A stretch of 64,000 nt of DNA. Origin: Armatimonadota bacterium (GTDB taxonomy: Bacteria; Armatimonadota; Fimbriimonadia; Fimbriimonadales; GBS-DC). Location of the stretch: the NCBI GenBank assembly GCA_037445735.1, contig JBBIJY010000002.1, forward strand, positions 96,001 to 160,000, in the 5' to 3' direction. The position numbers were made by a program, and so were the translations under genes. A model generated the notes under the pieces. The model was not told where the DNA came from. It searched no databases and saw only the letters and a list, made by a program, of their open reading frames with translations. Of the stretch, positions 155 through 26,158 are shown in pieces (position 1 is the first letter of the stretch; the number at the start of each line of letters is the position of its first letter).

Positions 155-1288
155 ATGATGAATCGATGGCTAATGGCTTGTACGGCAGGCGCCATTCTGT
201 GCGCCACTTTTGCGTATGCGGACGGACGGAAGTCCGAACAACTCCAGTTGTTCGACGCGAACTCGTTGCAGATGGTTATGCCCAAGCGCATGATGAAGGT
301 GCGCTGGGAGAACGGGCGAATCGTGCCCGTCACCCCGTGGATTGAGCTGGGCGACTATGCGCCCGCCGGACCCTGTGATACATCCGGAGCAACCGAAACG
401 CTGGTCTTCTCCCATGCTCCTGTTAACGCCAACACAGGCTCATTTGATTCCAGCGTGCAGGTCTGCATCCCAGGAAGCATATTCTACTTTGGACCAACCT
501 ATCACAACCCCTACTACGCGAACGACATCGAATCGCTGGTGGATTCCTCTTTCGATGGGGCAACCGCTACTTCGTTAACCCATCTCTGGTTCTGGAACCC
601 TAACTTGACGGATCCAGCCAGTGGTTCTCAACAGTGTTTCATTTTGATCGCCACAGCGGAGCAGTTTGATGTCGAGTGCCAGGTGGTGCATCAGACCTCG
701 GTTGTTGACGCCATACTGCTGGATTACGGCACGCTCAACGCAGGCGGTTACATCTCCTCAGTTTGCTTGAGCGCCGTTGGTGGTCTCCAGTTGCCTGCTA
801 CGCCTGCCGATGATGGGGATACAGGCACGGAGGTGCTGGGTGGTTATCTGGTTGTTTATGGACAAGCGTACGATCCTAACGCCAATCAATTGACGCTGGC
901 ATCAGGGGCTCAGCCGTTTCTCTGGCATACCGCCCTGAACAACCCTCAAAATGGCAGTTCCACCAGCACCCAATTTGACGATGACAACCCAACGGACGGC
1001 AACCATACATCTCCCACTGAATGCTATGACTACACCTTTAACCTCAGCAGCTCTGGCTGTCCCAACCCGAGCCTGCTGGGTGGTACAATCGCGTTCTGGG
1101 CGCAGGCAGCAGGCTGCCAGCCCAGCGGCGGGGATGTGGACGGCAACGGCTGTGTGGATGACGCCGACCTGCTGGCTGTGCTGTTCGCCTTCGGCGGGCA
1201 GGGCGGTCCCGAGGATGTCAACTGCGACGGCGTGGTGGACGACGCCGACCTGCTGGAGGTTCTTTTCAACTTCGGCAGCGGGTGCTAA
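155..1288 (+). CDS. Secreted protein with C-terminal dockerin-like (double EF-hand-like) domain
   Basis: Signal peptide (MMNRWLMACTAGAILCATFAYA), strong RBS, C-terminal GDVDGNGCVDDADLL...EDVNCDGVVDDADLL duplication. Confidence 0.85.
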   Translation: MMNRWLMACTAGAILCATFAYADGRKSEQLQLFDANSLQMVMPKRMMKVRWENGRIVPVTPWIELGDYAPAGPCDTSGATETLVFSHAPVNANTGSFDSSVQVCIPGSIFYFGPTYHNPYYANDIESLVDSSFDGATATSLTHLWFWNPNLTDPASGSQQCFILIATAEQFDVECQVVHQTSVVDAILLDYGTLNAGGYISSVCLSAVGGLQLPATPADDGDTGTEVLGGYLVVYGQAYDPNANQLTLASGAQPFLWHTALNNPQNGSSTSTQFDDDNPTDGNHTSPTECYDYTFNLSSSGCPNPSLLGGTIAFWAQAAGCQPSGGDVDGNGCVDDADLLAVLFAFGGQGGPEDVNCDGVVDDADLLEVLFNFGSGC

Positions 1289-1293
1289 ATCGT

Positions 1294-1337
1294 CCCTCAC
1301 CCCCTTCCCCCTCTCCCGAAGCTGCGGGAGAGGGGGG
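1294..1337. repeat. REP-like palindrome (CCCTCACCCC...CCCTCTCCC-loop-GGGAGAGGG family); may also act as a terminator
   Basis: ccccctctcccg-aagctg-cgggagaggggg hairpin just after the stop codon. Same family recurs at ~5.6, 35.6, 50.3 and 51.1-51.4 kb. Confidence 0.75.
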
Positions 1338-1520
1338 TTGCTCCTCACTCCTTTCTTCTTCAAGGTTAGAGACTGTCTAACACTCCACTGGTAGGGGGCG
1401 GTCACCGTGCCCGTACAATCACGCCCTTGCCATCGCGCCCCCGCGCTCGTACAATGCCATCTCCTCATAAAAACAGGAGAACGCGATTGCGCATAGAAAT
1501 AGCAACTGGAGGTGCGATCG

Positions 1521-3296
1521 ATGATGGTGGACACCCTGCCGAAGGCGTTTCTGCGCAGTGTGGAGCAGCACGCCGAGAAACCTGCCCTGCTGGTCAAGCG
1601 CGACCGCGAATATCACCCCATTACCTATCGGGAACTCTATCGGCGCGTGTTCGCCTGTGCGCGCGGCTTGCACGCGCTGGAGGTGCGCGCGGGCGACCGC
1701 GTGGCGATCCTCGCCGAAAATGGACCCGAATGGGCAATCACCGACTGGGCGAACCTGTGTCTGGGCGTGCTCACTGTGCCCATCTACTCCACCCTGACCG
1801 CCCAGCAGGTGGCTGACATCCTGCGCGATGCCGAACCTGTCGCGATGCTGGTCAGCGATAAACGCCAGCTGCGCAAAGCGCGCGAGGCGCTCGAAGAGAC
1901 GGGACTGACGCTCAAACTCATCAGCATCCAGCCCGACGAAACGGGCACCGCCACCACCTTCGAGGAGCTGCTCCAGCTGCCCGGCGAGCTGACCGAATCG
2001 CAGTTTCAACGCATTGCCTGCAGTATTGAACCCGACGAGGTGGCAACCCTCATCTACACTTCGGGCACCACTGGCGAGCCGAAAGGCGCGATGCTCACCC
2101 ACCGCAACTTCATCTCCAATATTGAGGCGTGCCTGGAAGTGATCCCGATCCAGCCGAACGATATCCTGCTCTCATTTTTGCCGTTGAGCCATGTGTTCGA
2201 GCGGTGTTGCGGGCACTTTCTGCCCATCTATGCGGGGCTGACCATTGCCTATGCGGAGAGCCTGTTCACGCTGGCTGCCGATATGCTGCAGGTGCGCCCC
2301 ACCATGATGCTGGGCGTGCCACGCTTCTTTGAATCGGTGCGCGATCGGATTCTCAACTCTGTTCGGGAGCAGACGCCCCTGAAACAGCGGCTGTTCTGGC
2401 AGGCGCATTCAGTGGGCAAGGTGGTCTCCCGCTGCTGGCGTGAGGGGCGACCAAGCCCCTTCCTCACCCGCCTGCTGCATGCCGTTCTGGATCGGCTGGT
2501 GGGCGAGAAGATTCGGGCGCGCACGGGCGGACGCCTGCGCATGTTCATCTCGGGCGGTGCCGCCCTGCCCGGAGAGATTGCCGAATTCTTCCACGCCTTC
2601 GGCATCCTCATTCTGGAAGGCTATGGGCTGACCGAGACCAGCCCCGTGCTGACCGTGAACCCGCCCCATGCACCCCGATTCGGCAGTGTGGGCAAGCCCA
2701 TCCCCGGCGTGGAGATTCGCATCGCCGAAGACGGCGAGATTCTGGCGCGCGGTCCGAACATCATGAAGGGCTACTACAAAAAGCCCGAAGCGACCGCTGC
2801 CGTGATCGACCCCGACGGCTGGTTCCACACGGGCGATATCGGCTATCTTGACGCGCAGGGCTACCTCTACATCACCGACCGCAAGAAAGACATCCTTGTG
2901 CTGGCGAACGGCAAGAATGTGGCGCCTCAGCGCATCGAGAACCTGCTGCGTGCCAGCCCCTACATTCAGGAAGCGGTCGTGTTCGGCGACGGCATGAGCG
3001 CGCCCGTCGCGCTGATTGTGCCCGATATGGAGCGCCTCAAAGAGTACGCCCATCAGCAGGAACTGGACACCACCGACATCCGCAGCCTGCTGGAGCATGA
3101 CATGGTTCTGCGGCTCTATCGGCAGGAGATCGAGAAGGTCAACCGCGAGCTGGCGGATTTCGAGAGGGTGAAGGCATTTCGGCTGCTGCCCAACCCCTTT
3201 ACCATCGAAGGCGGCGAGTTGACCCCCACCCTGAAGGTCAAACGGCGTGTGGTCGCCCAGAAATATGCGGCGCTGATTCAGGAGATGGCGCGGTAG
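1521..3296 (+). CDS. fadD: Long-chain fatty acid--CoA ligase (AMP-binding family)
   Basis: YTSGTTGEPKG, GYGLTET and GWFHTGDIG adenylate-forming motifs. GGAGG RBS before ATG 1521. Confidence 0.9.
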   Translation: MMVDTLPKAFLRSVEQHAEKPALLVKRDREYHPITYRELYRRVFACARGLHALEVRAGDRVAILAENGPEWAITDWANLCLGVLTVPIYSTLTAQQVADILRDAEPVAMLVSDKRQLRKAREALEETGLTLKLISIQPDETGTATTFEELLQLPGELTESQFQRIACSIEPDEVATLIYTSGTTGEPKGAMLTHRNFISNIEACLEVIPIQPNDILLSFLPLSHVFERCCGHFLPIYAGLTIAYAESLFTLAADMLQVRPTMMLGVPRFFESVRDRILNSVREQTPLKQRLFWQAHSVGKVVSRCWREGRPSPFLTRLLHAVLDRLVGEKIRARTGGRLRMFISGGAALPGEIAEFFHAFGILILEGYGLTETSPVLTVNPPHAPRFGSVGKPIPGVEIRIAEDGEILARGPNIMKGYYKKPEATAAVIDPDGWFHTGDIGYLDAQGYLYITDRKKDILVLANGKNVAPQRIENLLRASPYIQEAVVFGDGMSAPVALIVPDMERLKEYAHQQELDTTDIRSLLEHDMVLRLYRQEIEKVNRELADFERVKAFRLLPNPFTIEGGELTPTLKVKRRVVAQKYAALIQEMAR

Positions 3297-5736: not shown

Positions 5737-7743
5737 TCACTGATCCCAGCCTAAATGCCCATTAATGGAGATGGTGTACACCGCCTGACCTGTCACCAGC
5801 CGATAGACGGCTAATGGCGTGTCCACCGCAAACTCCGCCAGGATCACCCCCAGCGCAATCGCCCGCAGCTTCTCATAGCCTGGTAAGCCCCAGTAGCGGT
5901 TCACAAACAGCTTGATAATCAGCACCATTAGCAGCCCGAACCAGATGTAGTCGATGCCGAAGTTCATCGAGAGCGCGTAGCCCGCGGGATGGATCGGGAA
6001 GCCCGGCACGCGATAGCGAACGAAATCGAGCAGCAGCACGAAACAGAACGCGCCCGTGAAGAACGCCATCGCCGTTACATTCGGCGGGTAGCGGTTATCG
6101 GCTAACTGCGTGATGACGCCCGCCATGCCGCCCGCCCAGTCCGGTGCACCGTCCCGATAGAACCGATTCACGCTGAACAGCTCGCCCAGAAAGATGCCCG
6201 TTAGCACCGCCGTCGTAATCACAAAAAACAGCCCACGCTGATTGAGGCGGGCAATCTCGCCCATCTTCATCGCCTCCAGCTCGTACGGCATCGGATGCGT
6301 GCGGTGCAAACGGTTCATAAAATGGAAGGTGGTCATCAGGCGAGCGATGGTCGATTCGGAGAGATTCTGCGTGCCCGTGAAGGCAATCATCAGCTGGTGC
6401 GGTCCCATGAACGCCATCTCGTGGATGGGTGCGCCCAGCTGCGCCCGCAGCCGCGTCACAATCACGCTGAACGCCATATAGAGCGCCACATAGATGGTCA
6501 CCAGCCACCAGGGTAGCCCCACCGCCACGCCCAGCCCGATCAGCAGACCCAGACTGAGAATCAGCCCGATGAACGCCCAGCGCGCGGAGAGCGCGTAGCC
6601 CGCGTCGGGATTGAACCCTGTGCGAATCTCGTTCCAGATTTCTTTCAGGTAGCCGCGCGACGCCCACACCACGCTCACGAACAGCCCCAGAAATGCGCCC
6701 CACGACTGCTCGCTGAAATAGGGTGGCTGCGGTACCAGATAGCCCCCACCAAACACGCCCTGCTCGTAGCCCATCGCCGCCGTAATCACCTGCATCCCCT
6801 TGCGCACAAAGTAGAACAGAATGCACGAAAAGAGCAGGTCATTCGGCACGAACACGCCAATCGCCGTCATATAGGGGAACAGCCCCATCGGTATCCAGCC
6901 GACCTGATTCCAGGGCGGGCTTTGCAGGTACTCGTTCAATCGCGCCAGAAAGCGCACCTTGATGGGCGGGATCCACGGATAGAAGAAGTTGAGCGCGTTC
7001 AGCGTGTCGATGGCAGCCATCACGAGGAAGCCACCCCAGAGATATTTGCTGCGCCAGAGCGGCGCCTGCGGCTGGCACAGCAGCATCGGCACCTGCAGAA
7101 TGGGGAACGCCAGCCGCTCCTGCTGAGTCCACAGCCGCCGCATCAGCGCATTAATGCAGAGCATCGCCAGCGCCGCCGAGCCGAACAGCCCCATCCAGCC
7201 CAGAAAGATGGGCAACCACAGCGGCAACTTCATCAGCACATAGGGCATCCCGTGCCCGCCCTGACCGTAATCCTGCAGCGGATCCCCGCTTTTGAAGAAG
7301 AGCCAGCCGGCAACATGGGGCAGCACGCGCGTCTTGTAGGTGTCGTTCTGGTCGGCATACAGCCCGAAGGCGTGCCAGAGCGGTGAGACGACCGCCATCC
7401 ACTCCGCCGACATCGCCGTGCCCACAAACAGAATGCTGAACAGCAGCACCAGATCGGGCGTGCGCAGAAACCAGCGACGGGTCAGTCCGTAGCCGATGGC
7501 GTTCAGCAGGGCAACCGCCATCAGCGCGGAGACAGGCGGGATAATCAGCGAGAAGATGACGCTCACCACGCTCTCCACCGCCCAGTAGGTGGTGAACGGC
7601 AACAGGGCGAACCCGATCAGCAGCGCTCGCAACCGAATCGGGTTCGCCTGTTCCGATGGAGCCACCTCGCTCACAGCGGAGACCATCGCCTCCGATGAGG
7701 GCTTCGTTTGCATCGATGTACGCTTCGATTCGCCCTGCGCCAT
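5737..7743 (-). CDS. Large polytopic membrane protein, DUF6785/DUF6784-like (possible transporter)
   Basis: Many hydrophobic segments; ERLAFPILQVP and FPIHPAGYAL motifs that I recall from this family. Start uncertain. Confidence 0.65.
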   Translation of the reverse strand: MAQGESKRTSMQTKPSSEAMVSAVSEVAPSEQANPIRLRALLIGFALLPFTTYWAVESVVSVIFSLIIPPVSALMAVALLNAIGYGLTRRWFLRTPDLVLLFSILFVGTAMSAEWMAVVSPLWHAFGLYADQNDTYKTRVLPHVAGWLFFKSGDPLQDYGQGGHGMPYVLMKLPLWLPIFLGWMGLFGSAALAMLCINALMRRLWTQQERLAFPILQVPMLLCQPQAPLWRSKYLWGGFLVMAAIDTLNALNFFYPWIPPIKVRFLARLNEYLQSPPWNQVGWIPMGLFPYMTAIGVFVPNDLLFSCILFYFVRKGMQVITAAMGYEQGVFGGGYLVPQPPYFSEQSWGAFLGLFVSVVWASRGYLKEIWNEIRTGFNPDAGYALSARWAFIGLILSLGLLIGLGVAVGLPWWLVTIYVALYMAFSVIVTRLRAQLGAPIHEMAFMGPHQLMIAFTGTQNLSESTIARLMTTFHFMNRLHRTHPMPYELEAMKMGEIARLNQRGLFFVITTAVLTGIFLGELFSVNRFYRDGAPDWAGGMAGVITQLADNRYPPNVTAMAFFTGAFCFVLLLDFVRYRVPGFPIHPAGYALSMNFGIDYIWFGLLMVLIIKLFVNRYWGLPGYEKLRAIALGVILAEFAVDTPLAVYRLVTGQAVYTISINGHLGWDQ

Positions 7744-7765
7744 CAATTGTCCTGCCCGCACGGGC

Positions 7766-8884
7766 TTATCCGAGTCGGTTCAGGCGCACGCGATAGATAT
7801 GGGCGGACGCCTCGCGCGGGATGCCGCCGCGTGCCAGCACGCGCTCGATCTGTTCCTGCGAGATTCGCGCGTCGGGGATGGGCGGCACAATCGCGCTGAC
7901 GCGACCCTGCCACTCGACCAGCACGGCGTCGCGCTGGGGATCCACCTGCGCCCCCTCCCGCAACGGCTCATACGACTCCACCAGATAGACCACATAGCGC
8001 AGGGTGGGCAGCTCATGCGGCTCCACCGGCGGGCGGTGCGGGTCCAGCAGGGCGGCGCGTGTGGCATGGTGGATAATCTCGTGGGCGCGGGTCGGCTTCT
8101 GCGGTTTCAGGCTGCCCATCAGCCCACGCAGTTGCTCGTCCTGATAGAGCGCGACGAACACACTGCCTGGCTCTCGCAGCGCCTTCGGCAGGCGCCGCAG
8201 GTCAGGCTCAATCAGCGTGCCCTCCTGCACGAACCGCTCCACCGCTGCCTGTGCCAGCTGCAGGCAAGCCGTCTCCAGCGACGGCTCCGTTTTGCGCCAT
8301 GTGAGGCGTGGCTCCTGACCGCGCAGGATGCGCTGGATGTTGGCGCGATGGCGGAACACCACAATCGCCGCCGCGACCGCCAGAATCGCGACGGCAGCGG
8401 GCGAGTGCCCGAACCAGTAGGCGGCAATCGGCACGGTGATCGCGCCCAGAATGGAGCCGAGCGAGACCCAGCGGGTCAGCCCGAAGGCGGTCAGCCACAC
8501 GACAAAGGCGACGCCAGCGGTCGCAGGCGCAGCGGCTAACAGCACGCCCAGCCCCGTCGCGATGCCCTTGCCGCCCCGAAAGCGCATAAAGGGCGAGAAG
8601 GTGTGCCCCAGTATCGCCGCCGCGCCGATTAGCAAAGCGTCCACATCGCTCTGGGTGGCACGAGCCACCACAAAGGTGGGCAGCCAGCCCTTGAAGGCGT
8701 CCAGCAGCAGCACCGCCACGCCTGCCTTCGCGCCCAGCACACGGAACACATTCGTTGCGCCGATATTGCCGCTCCCATGCTGGCGGATATCGACCCCGCG
8801 CAGGCGCCCCACCCAGTAGCCGAACGGTAGCGAGCCGATACCGAACGCCACCAGCATCGCTCCAAGCAGCGCGTACCACTCCAT
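7766..8884 (-). CDS. plsY: Glycerol-3-phosphate acyltransferase PlsY fused to a C-terminal AMMECR1-like domain
   Basis: PlsY motifs GSGNIGATNVFR, GHTFSPF..FRGGKGIATG and RHRANIQR, then VFVALYQDEQLRGLMGSL...AALLDPHRPPVEPHEL (AMMECR1-like). Confidence 0.85.
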   Translation of the reverse strand: MEWYALLGAMLVAFGIGSLPFGYWVGRLRGVDIRQHGSGNIGATNVFRVLGAKAGVAVLLLDAFKGWLPTFVVARATQSDVDALLIGAAAILGHTFSPFMRFRGGKGIATGLGVLLAAAPATAGVAFVVWLTAFGLTRWVSLGSILGAITVPIAAYWFGHSPAAVAILAVAAAIVVFRHRANIQRILRGQEPRLTWRKTEPSLETACLQLAQAAVERFVQEGTLIEPDLRRLPKALREPGSVFVALYQDEQLRGLMGSLKPQKPTRAHEIIHHATRAALLDPHRPPVEPHELPTLRYVVYLVESYEPLREGAQVDPQRDAVLVEWQGRVSAIVPPIPDARISQEQIERVLARGGIPREASAHIYRVRLNRLG

Positions 8885-19098: not shown

Positions 19099-19743
19099 AT
19101 GGCAGTGCAGGCACTTGAGAAACCGGGAACGATTGGCTGGGAGGAATATCTGAACCTTCCGCTGACCACCTATGAGATTATCGACGGAGAGGTGATTGAG
19201 CTGGCAACGCCAACTTTGAGACATCAAAATGTGCTGAGTGAGCTACTGGTGCGCCTGCGCCTTTTCGTGAAAGAGCGCGGGCTGGGGCAGGTTTTCCCTG
19301 CTCCCTTCGACCTTGTGATTCGGCGTCAGCCGTTGCGCACGCGCCAGCCCGACCTGTTCTATCTTTCCTATGCTCGCGCCGGCAATCTGAATGCGCTGCT
19401 GGATCAATCGCGTCTGGAGTTTGCACCCGATCTGGTGATTGAGGTGCTGTCGCCGTCGGACACCCTGCGCATGTGGCGCGATAAGCTGCACGACTACTAC
19501 ACGCTGGGCGTGCCCGAAGTGTGGCTGGTGGATATTGAGCAGGGCGAGATCGAGGTGCATGTTCGCGAGGAGCATGGCTACAGCTCGCTCGGCTGGTTCT
19601 CCGGCGAGACCCCGCTGCCATCGCGCGTGCTGCCCGATCTGGTGTTGCTGCCCAAAACACTGTTTGAGAGCGCGGGCGAGCCAGCCGCAACCGCCAAAAG
19701 CGCGTCACCAGCCGTTAGTCGGCGTCGGGGTCGAACGGGCTGA
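19099..19743 (+). CDS. Uma2 (DUF820) family endonuclease
   Basis: YEIIDGE, PTLRHQ, QPDL, PDLVIEVLSPS, K...Y...GVPEVWLVD. Confidence 0.9.
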   Translation: MAVQALEKPGTIGWEEYLNLPLTTYEIIDGEVIELATPTLRHQNVLSELLVRLRLFVKERGLGQVFPAPFDLVIRRQPLRTRQPDLFYLSYARAGNLNALLDQSRLEFAPDLVIEVLSPSDTLRMWRDKLHDYYTLGVPEVWLVDIEQGEIEVHVREEHGYSSLGWFSGETPLPSRVLPDLVLLPKTLFESAGEPAATAKSASPAVSRRRGRTG

Positions 19744-22700
19744 CAGTGAAGCGCGGCTGGATCGCCCCCGCGAAGATGTCGGTCATCCCATTGCGCGTGC
19801 TGCTCCAGAACAGCAACAGCGACTCATCGAACCCGCCAAAGACATTGAGCGGCGACGGCGCCAGCCGATACTCCAGATTGGGTATCGCCCACAGATAGAG
19901 TTCGTTCGTCGGCAGGTTGATGGGCACAGGCGACACATATTCGGTGAGGTTGCCGCGCAGCTGACCCTCATCCAGCCAGCCGATAACCGCCACCTCGCTC
20001 CATTCGACGACCTGACCGGTTTGCGGATTGCGTGTGAGGTAGCGCACCTCCACCTCTTTGCCGATATCCCCGGTCGTGAAGTAGATTCTGCCCTGCACGG
20101 GATCATACTCATAGAAGCCCAGCCCACTGCCCGCAGGGTTGCGCGGGGTCAGCTGCACGATGGCGTGGTTCTCCCCGATGGCGAGCGCAGTGGCGCCCTC
20201 ACGCAGAGGAATCCCGCCACGCCAGCTAAGAATGGGCAGGCTCAGCCGCACGCCCGGACGCAGCGTCTTGTAGTAAAAGTTGCCCGGGCTGTTCGGTGCG
20301 CTGCCGCCCCGACGGAACAGCACCCAGAGCCGATCCACAGGCGGGCGGTCGGAGCTGCTGCAGACACCGTTCAGGGCGCCCTTGCGCACAGGCGATGCAG
20401 CCAGATTGTTCAGATTGTGGCGCGGGTTCAGCGTGCGCTGGAACACGCTGAACACCTGCGAGTAGCCACCTATCTGACCCGAAGCGTACGGGATCAGTCG
20501 CAACAGGCGCGGACGATAGGTCACCGTCACCACATCGTTCAGGCGCGGCGCCCGATTCACAAACCGAATGGTGCCGTTCAGTGGATCCACCACAATTGTG
20601 CCTGAATCGATCAGCATGTTGTTCTGGTTATTGCGCACAATATAGCGGAAAGTGAGCAGCCCTGTCGCCTCGTCTTCAATCGGCTCCTGCAAACGGCTCG
20701 GATTGGTGGGATCCACAATCACGGAGACGCCGTTCACCTTGATGTCGATATCCGCTTCCAGCGGGTTGCCGTCCTCGTTCCAGACCGTTTCGAGGCGGGT
20801 CCAGTCGAGGTGGCGCGTGCGCCACACATTGCGCTCCGCGTCCTTCTGGGCGACCTCATCGATGATGCGCGGCAGCAGCCGATCCTGAATATCGCCGAGC
20901 GCGCGCTCCACCTGACGGCTATCCAGCGGTAGCAGATTGCCGTTGCGCGGGTTCACATAGTAGCGGGCGAGCAGCAGCTCCGACTCGTTGCGCTCGCCAA
21001 CCGTGCCTGTGATGGCAACATCGGTGAGCAGCACGAAGGGCGAGTCAGGGCTGCTCGGGTTCAGCGACACACGATAGACCTGCGCTGCAACGCTATCCAC
21101 ACTGCGAATGGCACGGGAGAGCGGTAGCGACTGCTCGCGTCGCCAGCCATTGAAGCTATCGCCATCGGACGGCAGATAGAAAATCTGGTTCCTGCCCGCA
21201 GGCGCCGACACATAGAAGAGCCAGTTGCCGATGCCGGGCAGACCGGTGATGTGCGGGCGGGTGCGCGGCAGTGCAGGATCCACCGGCACAACGCTGATTT
21301 GCCCCACAGGCTCGCCCGTTTGCGGGTTGAGTTGCGTGTAGAACAGCACGGCGTAGTTGGTGCCCGCGATCTGCACCTCGCCTGTCCAGAAGAGCCACGC
21401 CTGCACCGCGCCGCGCGTGCCCTGCGTCAGATGAACCACAGGCTGATGGTGGCGAATGGTGCTTTTCTCTTCATCGGTCAGCGCACGCCCCAGATTGAGC
21501 GCCTGCACGAAGAGCGTGCCGTCGGGGTCGTTCGGGAAGGGTCCGAACGGACCGAGCCACCACTGCCCACTGATGCCTGTCGGTATCCAGCCGCCTGCCA
21601 GCGGGATGCCGTTCAGCAGCATGCGGGTGCCGTCCCAGTTGAGCGACGCCCAATAGAGGAAGAAGCGGTTCCGATTGCTGGGATCGCGATTGCTGCTCCA
21701 GTAAAGATGCAGTCGTCCTGTTTGCGGATCGCGGAACGCGGTCGGCGTGTGATTGCTGACGATGGGGGTGCCCGGTGCAGGCAACGGGTCAATCTGTGCC
21801 TGGGAGCCGCGCGTGACCCCGCCTGTGAGCTGGGTCTCCCGCACGCGCACCACGATGCGCATCGACGGCACGGTGATGGGATCGCCCGGCTCCACCACGC
21901 CAGCTGTGCCAGCTGCTGTGTCGCGGTAGACGCCAATCCACTGCGAGTAGACGCCCATCGGCTGGAAGGGCGGGATGGCAATGCTGATTTGAGGCAGGCG
22001 CGGCTCAAAATCGTTGCGCCCGTCACCGTTCACATCGGGCGTGCGACCGTAGGGCACGGCAGGCAGCGACAGGTAAGTGCCCGCCATATCGCCCGCGCGC
22101 GGCTTCTGCAACACCGCATAGGGCTGGTAGCCCGGCACAATCGCGCCTATCTGCGCCCAGCCGCCCACATTCGCCCAGTAGGGATTATCATACAGTTTGA
22201 GCGGATCGTTGCGGCTCCAGAAGCGCGGATCGAGCGTGCTGACCACCGTCGTCCACGCGGGCATCCCGGCGAATGTGCTGACCATATCCGAGAAGAGATA
22301 GATGCCGCCTGTGGCAGGATTGCCAAACGCTTTGCCCAGATAGAGCGGGTAGAGGTTGAGGTTGCCCTCGTTGCGCACGCGGAACGGCTTCCAGTAGGGC
22401 GCGAAGAGCGCGTTATCGGGGCGGAACGCCGAAGTGGGAGCATAGGGCGAGAGCGCGTCGAAGTTGAAGCCGAACCCGCCCGGCAACGCGCCGAAATCGA
22501 TGGTCTCTTCCTCAATCAGGAAGCGCGCATCCGGCTCAACGGTGATTTCGGTGGCGACCTCCCGATAGGCTTCCTGCGCGACCTGGTTCGCTCGCGGCGC
22601 CAGCGCGTTCTCCAGCCCATCGAAGCGCCCGTTGTTGTTCGAATCGATGTAGATAAAGTTCGTGTGGACAGCCGGGCTGTTGGATCGGAGAACCAGCGAG

Positions 22701-25700
22701 CTGTAGCGGTTCGGCGGCTGATAGCGCGGCACATTCACCTGCACCACGATGGGGTCGCCGTTGCGGTTGGCAAAGATGTTCTCGATGCGCATGGCGGTCT
22801 GGCGCAGGTCGGTGCCGCCCTCAAACAGCATGCGCACATTGCGGGCGGCAATATCGGGATAGTCGGGGCTGCGATTCGGGAGGGTGGGCGGCTGCTCCCA
22901 CGGCAGCGGGTAGTTAACCGCCCCCGGACCGCCCTGCCAGTACAGTCCGCCCGTCCAGGCACGCACATTCAGCGTGAGCGGGATCAAACTGTTAAGCGCG
23001 ATGTTGCGCCGATCCGCCACCGAGAAAAGACCGTTAATGAGCGTGCCATGCTTGGCGCTTCCGTTCGATTCGAACTGGGCAGGCACGAGCCGACCACCGT
23101 TACCGTTCACCAGATTCTGGGAATCTCCAGGATTGTTCTCGTCGCCCACAAAACTTCCCGACGGACTCCAGAGCTTGAGCGGGTGCGCGATGCTGAACTT
23201 CCAGCCCTCGCCTCTTTCACCGCCGCCGTAACGGTCAATCTCAGTCGTTTCCAGATTGAGGTCGGAGGTGAAGCTCATGCCCGGCATGCGCAGCTGCAGC
23301 TCGTATTCGGGTCCGGGCGTCCAGTAGTTGCTGCCAGACGCCTGCACGGTGATGCTCTGCACGGCAATCCAGTTCCGCTCCGGGTTGGGCGCTCGCTCGG
23401 TGGTGCGCGGTGCCAGCACATACTGCACACGCGAGACCCCTGGACCGACCACCTGCACAGCGACCTGATCGCGACGGGTCTCGGTGCCTGATAGCTTGAA
23501 GTCCCACACAATCACATAGAAGGTCTGACCCCACTCCAGCACCCCGGGCCACTCGGGTACTACCTCGTTGGGCGCCTTTTGACCTGTCAGCACCGCATCG
23601 GCTTCCTCTTTCTTGAGCGTGACGGTCACCTTGGTGTGGGAGATGTCGGTGTTGTCATCCTGGCGTCCTTCAGGACCAGTGGTGCCCCCAATGCCCGTTC
23701 CCGGGGGAAGCTCGCTATATGCCAGTCCTGAAGTGTTGAAGGCGTACACCACGCCCGCGTCGTCGGCGATATAGAGCCAGTCGTCCAGCACGGCGGGCGA
23801 GGCGAACAGCGTGTCGGCATAGAGTTTCCAGCCCTCGAACAGCCAGCCGTTGCGCCGATTGCGTTCGTTCGTGGCGTGCAGGGCAACAATTTCGCCCGCG
23901 TTCGTGCCCACCACAATCGCGGGCTTGGCGCCAAAGTCGTTGCCGTCGGGATCGGTATCATTCACTCCTGTGAACACGGGCGAGCTAAAGATGGCGCCGC
24001 TGAGCCGCTCGCTGAAGAAGGAGCCGTCGGTACCGCGCAATTCCTCGCCCGTGTCCGCGTTATAGGCAAAAACGCGCCCCAGACTGCCGCCCACAAAGAC
24101 GGCATTGATCGGGGGTGTGCTGGAATTGTTATCGAAGTCCAGCCCCTGCACCACCAGTGGCGAGCTGTAGTTGAACGCCAGGATGGAGTTGGTCTGGTCA
24201 GGCTGTCGCCAGATGAGCTGCCCACTGCTGGCGCTGATGGCGTAGGTGCGCCCGCCATCGATGCCGCCCGTGTTGATGAACACCTTGCCGAGCGCGACGG
24301 CAGGCGTGGCGGTGATCGGCTCAATCACTTCTGTGGTGGAGTTCAGGGGGGGATATGCCCAGCGCAGGGCGGTCGCGCTGCTGGTCGCGTCGGGGTTCAG
24401 CGCGTAGAGCCGCCCGTAGAAGTTGCCCTCCACGCTGCCGATGAACACCGTGTTGCCATCATACGCAGGCGCGCCCACGAACGACGCGCCGAAAACCCGA
24501 TACTCCCACTTCAGCCATGTAGCGGGGTTGCCCGGGTCCAGATCGGTTTTGATGGCGTACACCGAGCCGCTGGGGTTGCCGATTATCACCAGGTTTTTGT
24601 CTTCCAGAATGAGCGGCGAGGCGTAGCTGAAGGGCGCGGCGGTGGCGGGCTTGATACGCCAGTAGAGCTTCGTCTCGCCCGGATTGGTGCCGTTCTGGCC
24701 ATCGCCCAGCGCGTCGATGCAGTAGATGAAGCCGTCCTGCGCACCGAACACCAGCACCCAGCGCGTCGCGACGCTATTGCCGTCGCGCACGCGCACCTGC
24801 CCGACCGCCGGCGTGGAGAAGACCGATTCCGCCTGCAGGTTCGCTGGCACCAGCTTGATGGCGTCGGCGACCACATAGCGCGAGCGCTCGTTCGCATCTT
24901 CGGGCGAGAAGTTGCTCACCCAGATTTCGTAGGTTTGCCCCTGCGTGAAGGTGAAGGGCGACGAGCGCAGCAGCAGCCAGTTCCCGCCTCGCGTCTGGTT
25001 GACAATCAGCGTGGCGGTTTCGAGGTCGTCTTCAACCACATAGCGGGCGCGGCGCGCATGCTGATCGCTGCTGGGGAACCATGCGTACACATAGTATTGC
25101 CCGCTCTGGCTGACCGACACGCGCCAGACAGCACGACGCTCCTCAAACTGGTTCGCGGTCGGCGTGGTGCGGTAGTAGGAAGTGTTGTACTGATCTGTCA
25201 GATCAGTGCGCCGCTCCCAGCCGTTCGCCGTGAAGTCCGGGTCCTGATCATCGAGGATTACGCCCGTCTGACCTGTGGGTGTGACGCGGAACTGCCAGCG
25301 GATGCGCACATCGCGGGCAGCGTCGTTATGCACATGCTCCAGGCAGGTGATGGTGCCGTTGCCGTTCGCCACGAACACAAGGTGCTGATTCGCGTTCAGC
25401 GGGTTGCGAATGACCACCGGCGACGCCTGAATGATGCCGTAGTCGGGCACGAATCGCACGGCGTCCGCCACCGCAATCGGCAGGGGCTGCTCCCCTGCAT
25501 CGGGACCCTGCGGGTCGATGCCGTTGTCGAGCGTGATGGTGATGCGTTCGTTATTGTTGCGCACGATGAAGGGCAGATTGCCCAGCTGCTGCCAGCCGCC
25601 GCCCGTCTGATCCAGATAGAGATCGGCGACGCCGCTGGAGTCGGCAACCCGATAGTGGGCGCGCCGGAGGTTGCTGCGCATCTGACCGCCCACGCGCGTG

Positions 25701-26158
25701 CCCGACGAGGGCAGATGCACGAAAATCTTGTAGACGCCAGCGGGCAGCGGACCACTGTCCCATGTGAAGGTGGCGTTCGGTCGCCCCAGCGTGCCGACAG
25801 CGTAGCGGTACGGTTCGGTCGCCTGCGGGTTCTGAAGCCAGGCATCACCAGCCTGCTCCTGCAGGGCGGGCACAATCCAGGTGCCTGTGAAGGTCGCCGT
25901 CGCGCCGTTGTTATTGCTTTCGCCGTCGTTATCGACAACGATTGGCTCCCGCAGTTGCGGCTGGCGCGTTTCGCCTGGAAACGGCAGAAACGGATAGGTC
26001 CAGCCCAGCAACAGTTTGACCTTGCTATCGCGCGAGTTGCTGGTGACGCCCGTGCGCTGATTGCTGCCCCGATGTGTTGCCCAGCTATCCTGGGCGAACG
26101 CCATCGCCGTCCAGCCCATCAGCAAGGCTATAACCCATACGAACCGTACCGCTCTCAT
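19715..26158 (-). CDS. Giant secreted protein (2147 aa) with PQQ-like beta-propeller repeats and two golvesin/CBM-like beta-sandwich domains; candidate pilus-tip adhesin
   Basis: Signal peptide, WATHRGSNQRTG, repeated S(S/T)P.V...G..DG.(I/L)Y blade motifs, two modules ending in VADA(V/I)(R/K).VP, DxNxDG loops. Confidence 0.8.
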   Translation of the reverse strand: MRAVRFVWVIALLMGWTAMAFAQDSWATHRGSNQRTGVTSNSRDSKVKLLLGWTYPFLPFPGETRQPQLREPIVVDNDGESNNNGATATFTGTWIVPALQEQAGDAWLQNPQATEPYRYAVGTLGRPNATFTWDSGPLPAGVYKIFVHLPSSGTRVGGQMRSNLRRAHYRVADSSGVADLYLDQTGGGWQQLGNLPFIVRNNNERITITLDNGIDPQGPDAGEQPLPIAVADAVRFVPDYGIIQASPVVIRNPLNANQHLVFVANGNGTITCLEHVHNDAARDVRIRWQFRVTPTGQTGVILDDQDPDFTANGWERRTDLTDQYNTSYYRTTPTANQFEERRAVWRVSVSQSGQYYVYAWFPSSDQHARRARYVVEDDLETATLIVNQTRGGNWLLLRSSPFTFTQGQTYEIWVSNFSPEDANERSRYVVADAIKLVPANLQAESVFSTPAVGQVRVRDGNSVATRWVLVFGAQDGFIYCIDALGDGQNGTNPGETKLYWRIKPATAAPFSYASPLILEDKNLVIIGNPSGSVYAIKTDLDPGNPATWLKWEYRVFGASFVGAPAYDGNTVFIGSVEGNFYGRLYALNPDATSSATALRWAYPPLNSTTEVIEPITATPAVALGKVFINTGGIDGGRTYAISASSGQLIWRQPDQTNSILAFNYSSPLVVQGLDFDNNSSTPPINAVFVGGSLGRVFAYNADTGEELRGTDGSFFSERLSGAIFSSPVFTGVNDTDPDGNDFGAKPAIVVGTNAGEIVALHATNERNRRNGWLFEGWKLYADTLFASPAVLDDWLYIADDAGVVYAFNTSGLAYSELPPGTGIGGTTGPEGRQDDNTDISHTKVTVTLKKEEADAVLTGQKAPNEVVPEWPGVLEWGQTFYVIVWDFKLSGTETRRDQVAVQVVGPGVSRVQYVLAPRTTERAPNPERNWIAVQSITVQASGSNYWTPGPEYELQLRMPGMSFTSDLNLETTEIDRYGGGERGEGWKFSIAHPLKLWSPSGSFVGDENNPGDSQNLVNGNGGRLVPAQFESNGSAKHGTLINGLFSVADRRNIALNSLIPLTLNVRAWTGGLYWQGGPGAVNYPLPWEQPPTLPNRSPDYPDIAARNVRMLFEGGTDLRQTAMRIENIFANRNGDPIVVQVNVPRYQPPNRYSSLVLRSNSPAVHTNFIYIDSNNNGRFDGLENALAPRANQVAQEAYREVATEITVEPDARFLIEEETIDFGALPGGFGFNFDALSPYAPTSAFRPDNALFAPYWKPFRVRNEGNLNLYPLYLGKAFGNPATGGIYLFSDMVSTFAGMPAWTTVVSTLDPRFWSRNDPLKLYDNPYWANVGGWAQIGAIVPGYQPYAVLQKPRAGDMAGTYLSLPAVPYGRTPDVNGDGRNDFEPRLPQISIAIPPFQPMGVYSQWIGVYRDTAAGTAGVVEPGDPITVPSMRIVVRVRETQLTGGVTRGSQAQIDPLPAPGTPIVSNHTPTAFRDPQTGRLHLYWSSNRDPSNRNRFFLYWASLNWDGTRMLLNGIPLAGGWIPTGISGQWWLGPFGPFPNDPDGTLFVQALNLGRALTDEEKSTIRHHQPVVHLTQGTRGAVQAWLFWTGEVQIAGTNYAVLFYTQLNPQTGEPVGQISVVPVDPALPRTRPHITGLPGIGNWLFYVSAPAGRNQIFYLPSDGDSFNGWRREQSLPLSRAIRSVDSVAAQVYRVSLNPSSPDSPFVLLTDVAITGTVGERNESELLLARYYVNPRNGNLLPLDSRQVERALGDIQDRLLPRIIDEVAQKDAERNVWRTRHLDWTRLETVWNEDGNPLEADIDIKVNGVSVIVDPTNPSRLQEPIEDEATGLLTFRYIVRNNQNNMLIDSGTIVVDPLNGTIRFVNRAPRLNDVVTVTYRPRLLRLIPYASGQIGGYSQVFSVFQRTLNPRHNLNNLAASPVRKGALNGVCSSSDRPPVDRLWVLFRRGGSAPNSPGNFYYKTLRPGVRLSLPILSWRGGIPLREGATALAIGENHAIVQLTPRNPAGSGLGFYEYDPVQGRIYFTTGDIGKEVEVRYLTRNPQTGQVVEWSEVAVIGWLDEGQLRGNLTEYVSPVPINLPTNELYLWAIPNLEYRLAPSPLNVFGGFDESLLLFWSSTRNGMTDIFAGAIQPRFTVSPFDPDAD

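Follow-up and report, generated by a model that had tools for sequence, protein, structure and literature searches.

A PlsY acyltransferase fused to an AMMECR1-like domain that lacks the family cysteine: a real, conserved and apparently undescribed protein of one Fimbriimonadales family

In a stretch of 64,000 nucleotides from the genome of an Armatimonadota bacterium of the order Fimbriimonadales (positions 96,001 to 160,000 of contig JBBIJY010000002.1, assembly GCA_037445735.1; hereafter the window), the gene for the acyl-phosphate:glycerol-3-phosphate acyltransferase PlsY continues in frame into a domain of the AMMECR1 family. The fusion is real, conserved and apparently undescribed. As the best explanation of the whole, to which we give a probability of about one half, we propose that a pair of neighbouring genes was fused once, that the cysteine characteristic of AMMECR1 was lost later and that the domain is now a non-catalytic cytoplasmic module of PlsY. 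PlsY is an essential bacterial enzyme, with which the synthesis of membrane lipids begins. AMMECR1 has been conserved all the way from archaea to humans; the human gene lies within the region of a contiguous-deletion syndrome; we know of no biochemical activity for the family. The main value of the fusion is that it provides a testable lead on AMMECR1 function.

One gene, two domains

The fused gene occupies positions 7766..8884 on the minus strand (372 aa, with an ATG start and the stop codon at 7766..7768), as defined by the list of open reading frames and by two Pfam domains that share a single frame. The PlsY part comprises approximately residues 1-198 (8291..8884, minus strand). It matches PF02660 over residues 13-186 (183.3 bits, E 4.9e-54) and the NCBIfam equivalog model TIGR00023 over model positions 7-195 of 196, with 190.2 bits against a cut-off of 137.2. 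The blocks G37 S38 G39 N40 I41 G42 A43 T44, H94/S97/P98 and G104 G105 K106 G107 are invariant among 47 full-length fused proteins; we take the GSGNxGxTN, HxxSP and GGKG blocks to be the functional motifs of the cytoplasmic loops of PlsY. An AlphaFold2 model of the fused protein was built on an alignment of the 47 fused homologues (mean pLDDT, the per-residue confidence, 86.7; pTM, the predicted TM score, 0.56). In a Foldseek comparison the N-terminal half of this predicted model superimposed on the solved PlsY of Aquifex (5xj5-5xj8) with a TM score on target of 0.90-0.93, an rmsd of 1.6-1.8 and 39-40% identity. The claim of a complete PlsY, made when only the letters of the sequence and its open frames were at hand, is thus borne out by the model coverage, the motifs and the fold. 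The PF02660 match is moreover the sole PlsY match in the genome of the window (99.2% complete), and PlsX is present there as well, both of which indirectly support the acyltransferase activity predicted for this half.

The AMMECR1-like domain spans residues 203-372 (7769..8278, minus strand). As the sequence-only reading had proposed, it belongs to AMMECR1 by profile search: PF01871 is matched over residues 208-361 (model positions 1-158 of 168) with 75.2 bits, the cut-off being 25 (E 5.7e-21). The more specific NCBIfam model TIGR04335 (AmmeMemoRadiSam protein A) gave 68.5 bits with the C-terminal part of the protein, which is under its cut-off of 99. The N-terminal two thirds of the domain align by sequence to solved AMMECR1 proteins. 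In the predicted model the C-terminal half resembles PH0010 (1vaj) with a TM score of 0.69 and an E value of 1.5e-10 (Foldseek); the TM scores on target were 0.52 for MM0484 (1zq7) and 0.42-0.44 for ST0229 (1wsc). These three solved proteins have the same fold, and differ from the fused domain in being free archaeal proteins that carry RGCIG and DPRF.

In the published analysis of AMMECR1 the predicted active site consists of the motifs RGChG and DxR-aromatic, both of them nearly invariant, and the thiol of the cysteine is directed into a cleft (Balaji and Aravind 2007, PMC2034487). In the fused protein R-G-L-M-G replaces the first motif (8114..8128, minus strand), with Leu for Cys at residue 255, and D-P-H-R replaces the second (8033..8044, minus strand). 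Both were read directly from the DNA, and residue alignments with 1zq7 and 1vaj place LRGLMG on LRGCIG and DPHRPP on DPRFP, so that the change of the two hallmarks (LRGCIG to LRGLMG, DPRF to DPHR) noted earlier from the sequence stands. The same holds for nearly all relatives: the family cysteine is gone from 46 of the 47 fused proteins, the residue at its position being L in 39, M in 5, Q, I and C in one each. DPRF is present in a single protein, while its Asp is retained in all 47. Y, R or H occupies position 283, and seven residues (H, R, S, Y, C, N or F) occur at position 284. One protein, P0051, is the only member of the fused set that still has LRGCVG together with DPRFPP.

A genuine fusion confined to one family

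Separate, overlapping genes for the two domains do occur in relatives of other families (see below), and an artefact of assembly or gene calling that joined such genes would be a trivial explanation. The sequence data speak clearly against it. A single open frame holds the two domains in 21 of the family's genomes, and the same is true of 51 clusters of varied origin. More specifically, 51 of the best 120 homologous clusters listed for the whole protein contain both domains; these derive from NCBI, JGI, ENA and Logan assemblies, and those that carry a name are Fimbriimonadales. The full-length fused homologues are 51-84% identical, and neither stops nor frameshifts occur in any of the 47. Besides the genome of the window, 24 genomes of its family were searched, and 20 of these gave an AMMECR1 match, in each case inside an open frame of 375-523 aa. 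The junction near position 8280 is bridged without a single indel by contigs from 4 of 4 public runs, one of them from a 95%-identical strain whose contig spans all 1251 bases unbroken. The four runs belong to a single study, and the source sample may be among them. Retention in relatives and a read-level look at the junction had been named beforehand as checks, and both came out in favour of the fusion. A fusion with an intact junction is far beyond chance, and the artefact is refuted as far as sequence data allow, which leaves it practically no probability.

The four genomes of the family that lack a Pfam AMMECR1 match differ among themselves. In one (G010) plsY is cut by a contig end, and another (G024, 81% complete) has no PlsY match. 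In a third (G015, 87% complete, locus L012) the match is limited to residues 1-108 and 320-372 within a frame of 291 aa, a result of an internal deletion or else of a misassembly. In the fourth (G004; locus L010 1360..2535, plus strand) PlsY carries a C-terminal extension that has diverged beyond recognition by Pfam. This form is shared with the protein P0121 of the same genus; a profile comparison related its C-terminal part to the fused domain with 91.5% probability and revealed a deletion across the motif region.

Outside the family the fusion was not encountered. None of 15 genomes from three other families of the order had an AMMECR1-bearing fusion frame. In a library of 1.84 billion representative proteins, searched with a profile of the fused proteins, no other lineage with a PlsY-AMMECR1 fusion was found, and only P0045 (full length) and P0121 (of the G004 type) outscored the matches to PlsY alone. 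We thus deal with a single genuine gene that is confined to one family of the Fimbriimonadales (Armatimonadota). A dedicated search for the cysteine-less domain in free-standing form returned 5 matches, among which no true case was found. Three short candidates were rejected: P0053 starts within the final helix of PlsY, the N-terminal stretch of P0270 is unrelated, and in P0271 the sequence sets in only in the middle of the domain. They were read as fragments because their contigs are all at most 2.7 kb long.

An older pair of genes

The fusion has a clear counterpart in other families of the phylum. In a genome of the sister family (G027, locus L004) plsY (614..1219) and an AMMECR1 gene (1219..1752) are separate genes that share one base, and the free AMMECR1 is a canonical protein of 177 aa with LRGCVG and DNRF intact. 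We collected 20 further loci in the phylum, picked by a short open frame (170-263 aa) and a score of 147-169 bits and thus not at random. Each of the 20 has a PlsY gene immediately before AMMECR1, in the same orientation. With G027 included, the two frames overlap at 13 of the 21 loci, whereas a gap of 1-44 nt separates them at the other 8; for this count the start codon closest to the plsY stop was chosen automatically. RGC[IV]G and D.RF are intact in each of the 21 unfused copies. The pair thus agrees with the fusion in the two families involved, in gene order and in strand, and differs from it in consisting of two genes, in the intact cysteine and DxRF motif (21 of 21) and, for G027, in the retention of Memo.

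The frequency of this arrangement was estimated from an even sample of the phylum, 70 genomes of at least 90% completeness, searched with the profile of the fused proteins. Adjacency of plsY and AMMECR1 was found in 11 of the 70 genomes, from six families (G044, G050, G053, G059, G066, G072, G079, G084, G091, G096 and G103); 38 of the sampled genomes had any match to the AMMECR1 part. The adjacent copies were also the best matches to the fused-protein profile: they scored 100-121 bits, and no non-adjacent copy exceeded 93. One genome (G075) with a high-scoring AMMECR1 was excluded from the adjacent count; it had no PlsY within 1.5 kb upstream, nor elsewhere in the genome by profile. All in all, the pair or the fusion was seen in at least 8 families (f4, f9, f15, f18, f22, f25, f29 and, fused, f1). 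Frames of 309-390 aa around AMMECR1 in family f18, tried as candidates for an extra domain, turned out to be an upstream out-of-frame run over plsY.

PlsY was absent within 2.5 kb of AMMECR1 in all 80 loci outside the phylum that are nearest to that of G027, among contigs that represent one genome per species and are mostly from Clostridia. Adjacency to plsY was likewise found in 0 of 44 AMMECR1-bearing genomes of the Bacillota (the phylum of G336; 61 genomes searched) and in none of five further control genomes outside the phylum. It had been stated at the outset that AMMECR1 domains usually travel with Memo and radical-SAM partners. In the Armatimonadota this is not their only context, as one subfamily sits directly behind plsY in the form of a separate gene that often overlaps it.

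Order of events and loss of the partners

The relations between the free and the fused domains were examined by a quick maximum-likelihood search, which gave a tree for 74 AMMECR1 domains with SH-aLRT as the only support, a midpoint root and a long branch for G027. The 21 fused domains in it form one clade (SH-aLRT 96) with the free copy of G027 as sister (97). Within the clade P0051, which has retained the cysteine, splits off first, and the remaining 20 domains group together (99). Hence the cysteine and the DxR-aromatic motif were replaced after the fusion, in all but the earliest-branching member. The fusion itself very probably arose once, from an older two-gene unit of plsY and a canonical, cysteine-bearing AMMECR1; it is the end point of an older gene linkage and not a one-off capture.

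Free AMMECR1 paralogues in which a motif search found no RGC-type motif were observed in three other genomes (L142, L143 and L144, of G051, G242 and G189). They are located far from plsY and lie apart from the fused clade in the tree.

The proteins with which AMMECR1 is otherwise associated could not be found next to the fusion or elsewhere in the genomes. Memo (PF01875) had no match in any of the 5 fused-family genomes searched (G000, which is the genome of the window, G004, G006, G008 and G012), although the control genomes were matched and Memo is present in G027. For the radical SAM enzyme TIGR04337 the best match in the genome of the window reached 21.9 bits against a cut-off of 220, and there was none above the cut-off in five relatives, i.e. 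the four other fused-family genomes and G027.

The relatives thus provide a series of stages, from separate canonical genes via a fused form with the cysteine and a fused form without it to a strongly diverged form. Such a series would be a clean natural case of an enzyme domain becoming a non-catalytic module under continued selection.

Selection and residue conservation

The ratios of non-synonymous to synonymous substitution rates (dN/dS) were calculated according to Nei and Gojobori for nine fused genes; for the more distant pairs the dS values are close to saturation. Within the genus, the dN/dS of the AMMECR1-like domain was 0.062-0.115, and that of PlsY 0.079-0.127. Moreover, among 36 pairs with identities down to about 50%, the identity of the domain equalled or exceeded that of PlsY in 35. 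The domain and PlsY are thus under equally strong purifying selection.

These data bear directly on the possibility that the domain lost its function with the cysteine and is now disappearing. Some members of the clade do look that way: the lineage of G004 and P0121 is strongly diverged, with the deletion across the motif region, and the G015 frame matches residues 1-108 and 320-372 only. For most of the clade such decay is contradicted by the selection data, with dN/dS about 0.1 and the identity of the domain at or above that of PlsY in nearly all pairs, and by the lack of stops and frameshifts in the full-length proteins; we consider it very unlikely. The label 'degenerate', which the sequence-only reading had given to the domain, consequently does not fit in the sense of simple decay, for its conservation equals or exceeds that of PlsY and it possesses a clade-invariant residue set of its own.

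This residue set emerged from a comparison of the fused domains with 21 plsY-adjacent and 16 other-phylum canonical domains. The two canonical sets share the same residue, with a conservation of at least 90%, at 51 positions. The fused clade kept 21 of them (including R253, G257, E269, D281, E291, R365 and R370), 5 were weakened and 25 have a different majority residue (including C255, N273, R283, F284, D300, Y319, R329 and G330). Another 27 positions are at least 95% conserved in the fused clade only (including C207, E226, Y247, R266, R276, Y297, Y300, E303 and W325), a number that is partly expected from the smaller depth of this clade.

A re-tooled enzyme would be one way to account for this pattern. 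The domain would then still be catalytic, via residues other than the lost cysteine, and perform a new chemistry at the membrane, near PlsY. The strong selection, the 27 clade-specific positions and the retention of R253, G257, E269 and D281 of the old cleft are in line with the idea. However, both predicted active-site motifs are altered and no single replacement is fixed at positions 283 and 284, although the catalytic residues of an enzyme should be fixed; the shallow depth of the clade inflates the clade-specific conservation, and neither Memo nor the radical SAM partner remains. On balance a re-tooled enzyme seems unlikely.

Location of the domain

The last PlsY helix is connected to the extra domain by a basic linker, approximately residues 187-203 (8276..8326, minus strand), which was delimited by its Arg/Lys content and by the block of lowest pLDDT (62, residues 191-200). 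Seven Arg or Lys residues fall within residues 178-198 of the translation. PlsY has seven helices and an active site that opens to the cytoplasmic side, and a cytoplasmic DegV domain has been described at its C-terminus (Li et al. 2017, PMC5700162). We infer that the AMMECR1-like domain is cytoplasmic, placed by a basic linker of approximately 15 residues on the side to which the active site of PlsY opens, because the linker is rich in Arg and Lys, because of the orientation of the PlsY active site, and because the partners fused to the same end of PlsY elsewhere, DegV and GpsA, are cytoplasmic. Within that compartment the mutual placement of the two halves is not fixed by the prediction, given the pTM of only 0.56 and the linker pLDDT of 62. 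A complex prediction of residues 1-198 with residues 199-372, for which alignments were supplied and controls were not run, gave a score of 0.00 against a mark of 0.32, a value that speaks neither for nor against binding.

A proposed module serving PlsY

Because the domain is conserved and was never found free, we tentatively take it to serve PlsY as a non-catalytic accessory module, by binding or scaffolding. It would no longer perform the ancestral cysteine-dependent chemistry, since both the cysteine and the Memo partner are gone. Instead it may bind a ligand or partner that feeds or gates PlsY: the acyl-phosphate derived from PlsX, glycerol-3-phosphate, or the product. As an alternative within the same role, it may stabilise PlsY. 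An accessory role of either kind would parallel that of the DegV/FakB-like and GpsA domains found at the PlsY C-terminus. The soluble sensor or regulator of phospholipid synthesis suggested by the sequence-only reading may be counted among several non-catalytic roles with which the data are compatible.

A number of observations weigh against an accessory module. The pTM is low, and no confident model places the PlsY part and the AMMECR1 part in contact. In the genus of G004 and P0121, two close relatives differ at 18 of 156 domain residues versus 5 of 200 in PlsY, and the domain may be dispensable there. Part of the set of 27 'new' invariant positions is discounted by clade depth, as mentioned. 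The published prediction for AMMECR1, a computational one, is a role in RNA base modification, with no evident tie to PlsY (PMC2034487, PMC4075521). Finally, the ribosome-assembly GTPase Der is encoded upstream of plsY in 6 of the 8 loci tested; the cluster is therefore of mixed function, and the adjacency could be historical.

The last two points lead to an explanation in which the domain is an unrelated passenger. AMMECR1 would have ended up behind plsY for historical operon reasons (der-plsY-X), with a function outside phospholipid synthesis that tolerates the tethering or even profits from it. Besides Der and the predicted RNA-related function, the overlapping or abutting frames are in agreement with this, as a small change at the stop and start codons easily gives a fusion. 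Nevertheless, the pair is held across at least 8 families though other flanking genes change. Moreover, membrane tethering and removal of the cysteine should abolish an RNA-directed role, yet the domain is conserved like PlsY, and a true free-standing cysteine-less copy was not found. A passenger is improbable in our view, and the accessory module remains our preferred explanation.

A bolder view can be taken as well, namely that the plsY-linked AMMECR1 proteins of the Armatimonadota are working partners of PlsY. An acyl group, or another group derived from a lipid phosphate, would be accepted or carried by the conserved cysteine of the cleft where phospholipid synthesis begins, and in the fused lineage tethering to PlsY would have made the covalent step unnecessary. 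We regard this view as quite unlikely. If true, it would give the first biochemical handle on AMMECR1 and suggest that one branch of the family, at least, acts on lipids and not on RNA.

Relation to known systems

The AMMECR1 sequences nearest to the plsY-linked ones outside the phylum are of the AmmeMemoRadiSam type. Four loci of this type were examined: three encode AMMECR1 as a fusion with a LigB-type dioxygenase, and in two a radical SAM gene follows, surroundings that agree with the published context of AMMECR1 (PMC2034487). The fused domain has the AMMECR1 fold and most of the scaffold residues in common with these proteins. It is unlike them in that it scores below the TIGR04335 cut-off and has no cysteine, and in that neither Memo nor a radical SAM enzyme passing the cut-off was found in the genome. 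In one of the LigB-AMMECR1 loci, from an Acidobacteria metagenome-assembled genome (MAG; L087 3128..4267, plus strand), a release-factor-like protein of baeRF family 10 is encoded directly downstream, and its gene takes the place that the radical SAM gene has in other loci. In a MAG of the Thermodesulfovibrionia (L052 770..2311, plus strand) a free AMMECR1 directly follows a polyprenyl synthetase gene, which represents another lipid-related neighbour.

On the side of PlsY, the closest parallel is the PlsY-DegV fusion reported by Li et al. (2017, PMC5700162), in which a soluble, FakB-like cytoplasmic domain is likewise attached to the PlsY C-terminus and which those authors take to indicate that substrate is handed over to PlsY. 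DegV is known to bind fatty acids and so has a clear link to the acyl donor, whereas AMMECR1 is without a known ligand. The delivery of substrates to PlsY is still under debate according to the same source (PMC5700162). A second parallel is P0179 (540 aa), where the C-terminus of PlsY is fused to GpsA, a complete NAD-dependent glycerol-3-phosphate dehydrogenase and thus the maker of the soluble substrate of PlsY. A further PlsY fusion occurs within the Armatimonadota: three loci (L151 133..1866, minus strand; L152 160..1965, minus strand; L154 1189..2991, plus strand; genomes G041, G045 and G085) encode a PlsY with a C-terminal extension of approximately 370-400 aa, the sole Pfam match of which is PF01488, a Rossmann fold of the Shikimate_DH type. 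The GpsA and PF01488 partners differ from the AMMECR1-like domain by their recognisable enzymatic folds. In another locus (L153, G080) PlsY forms the C-terminal part of a 580-aa frame. With the present fusion, PlsY gains a further natural C-terminal partner besides DegV and GpsA.

The two protein families themselves were known already; what is new is the plsY-AMMECR1 pair that ends in a fusion, a new type of context for AMMECR1. A published link between AMMECR1 and PlsY was not found in the literature, where supplements, including the AMMECR1 neighbourhood list of Balaji and Aravind (2007), were outside the search. As far as the literature found goes, the impression voiced earlier that the fusion is undescribed can be upheld: the Pfam search for PlsY fusions by Li et al. 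(2017) reports DegV only, and the term AMMECR1 has 0 occurrences in the text of that paper (PMC5700162). At the level of titles and abstracts no work on the function of AmmeMemoRadiSam was found, and at the level of titles and listings no link of AMMECR1 to lipids.

Neighbouring genes

Directly downstream of the fused gene, at 5737..7761 on the minus strand, lies a gene for a membrane protein of 674 aa with the domains DUF6785 and DUF6784 (347.6 and 63 bits in Pfam). It starts approximately 4 nt past the stop of the fused gene on the same strand, and the two may form one operon. The flanks of the fused gene are not conserved within the family: neither of the neighbours in the window, the DUF6785 protein and TrpE, was detected by tblastn in the flanks of approximately 1.5 kb of 9 related loci. 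A protein with DUF6785 and DUF6784 is also encoded directly upstream of plsY in G103, a genome from a distant family (L148 17..814, plus strand). Elsewhere in the window, the list of open reading frames contains a very long frame of 2147 aa at 19715..26158 on the minus strand.

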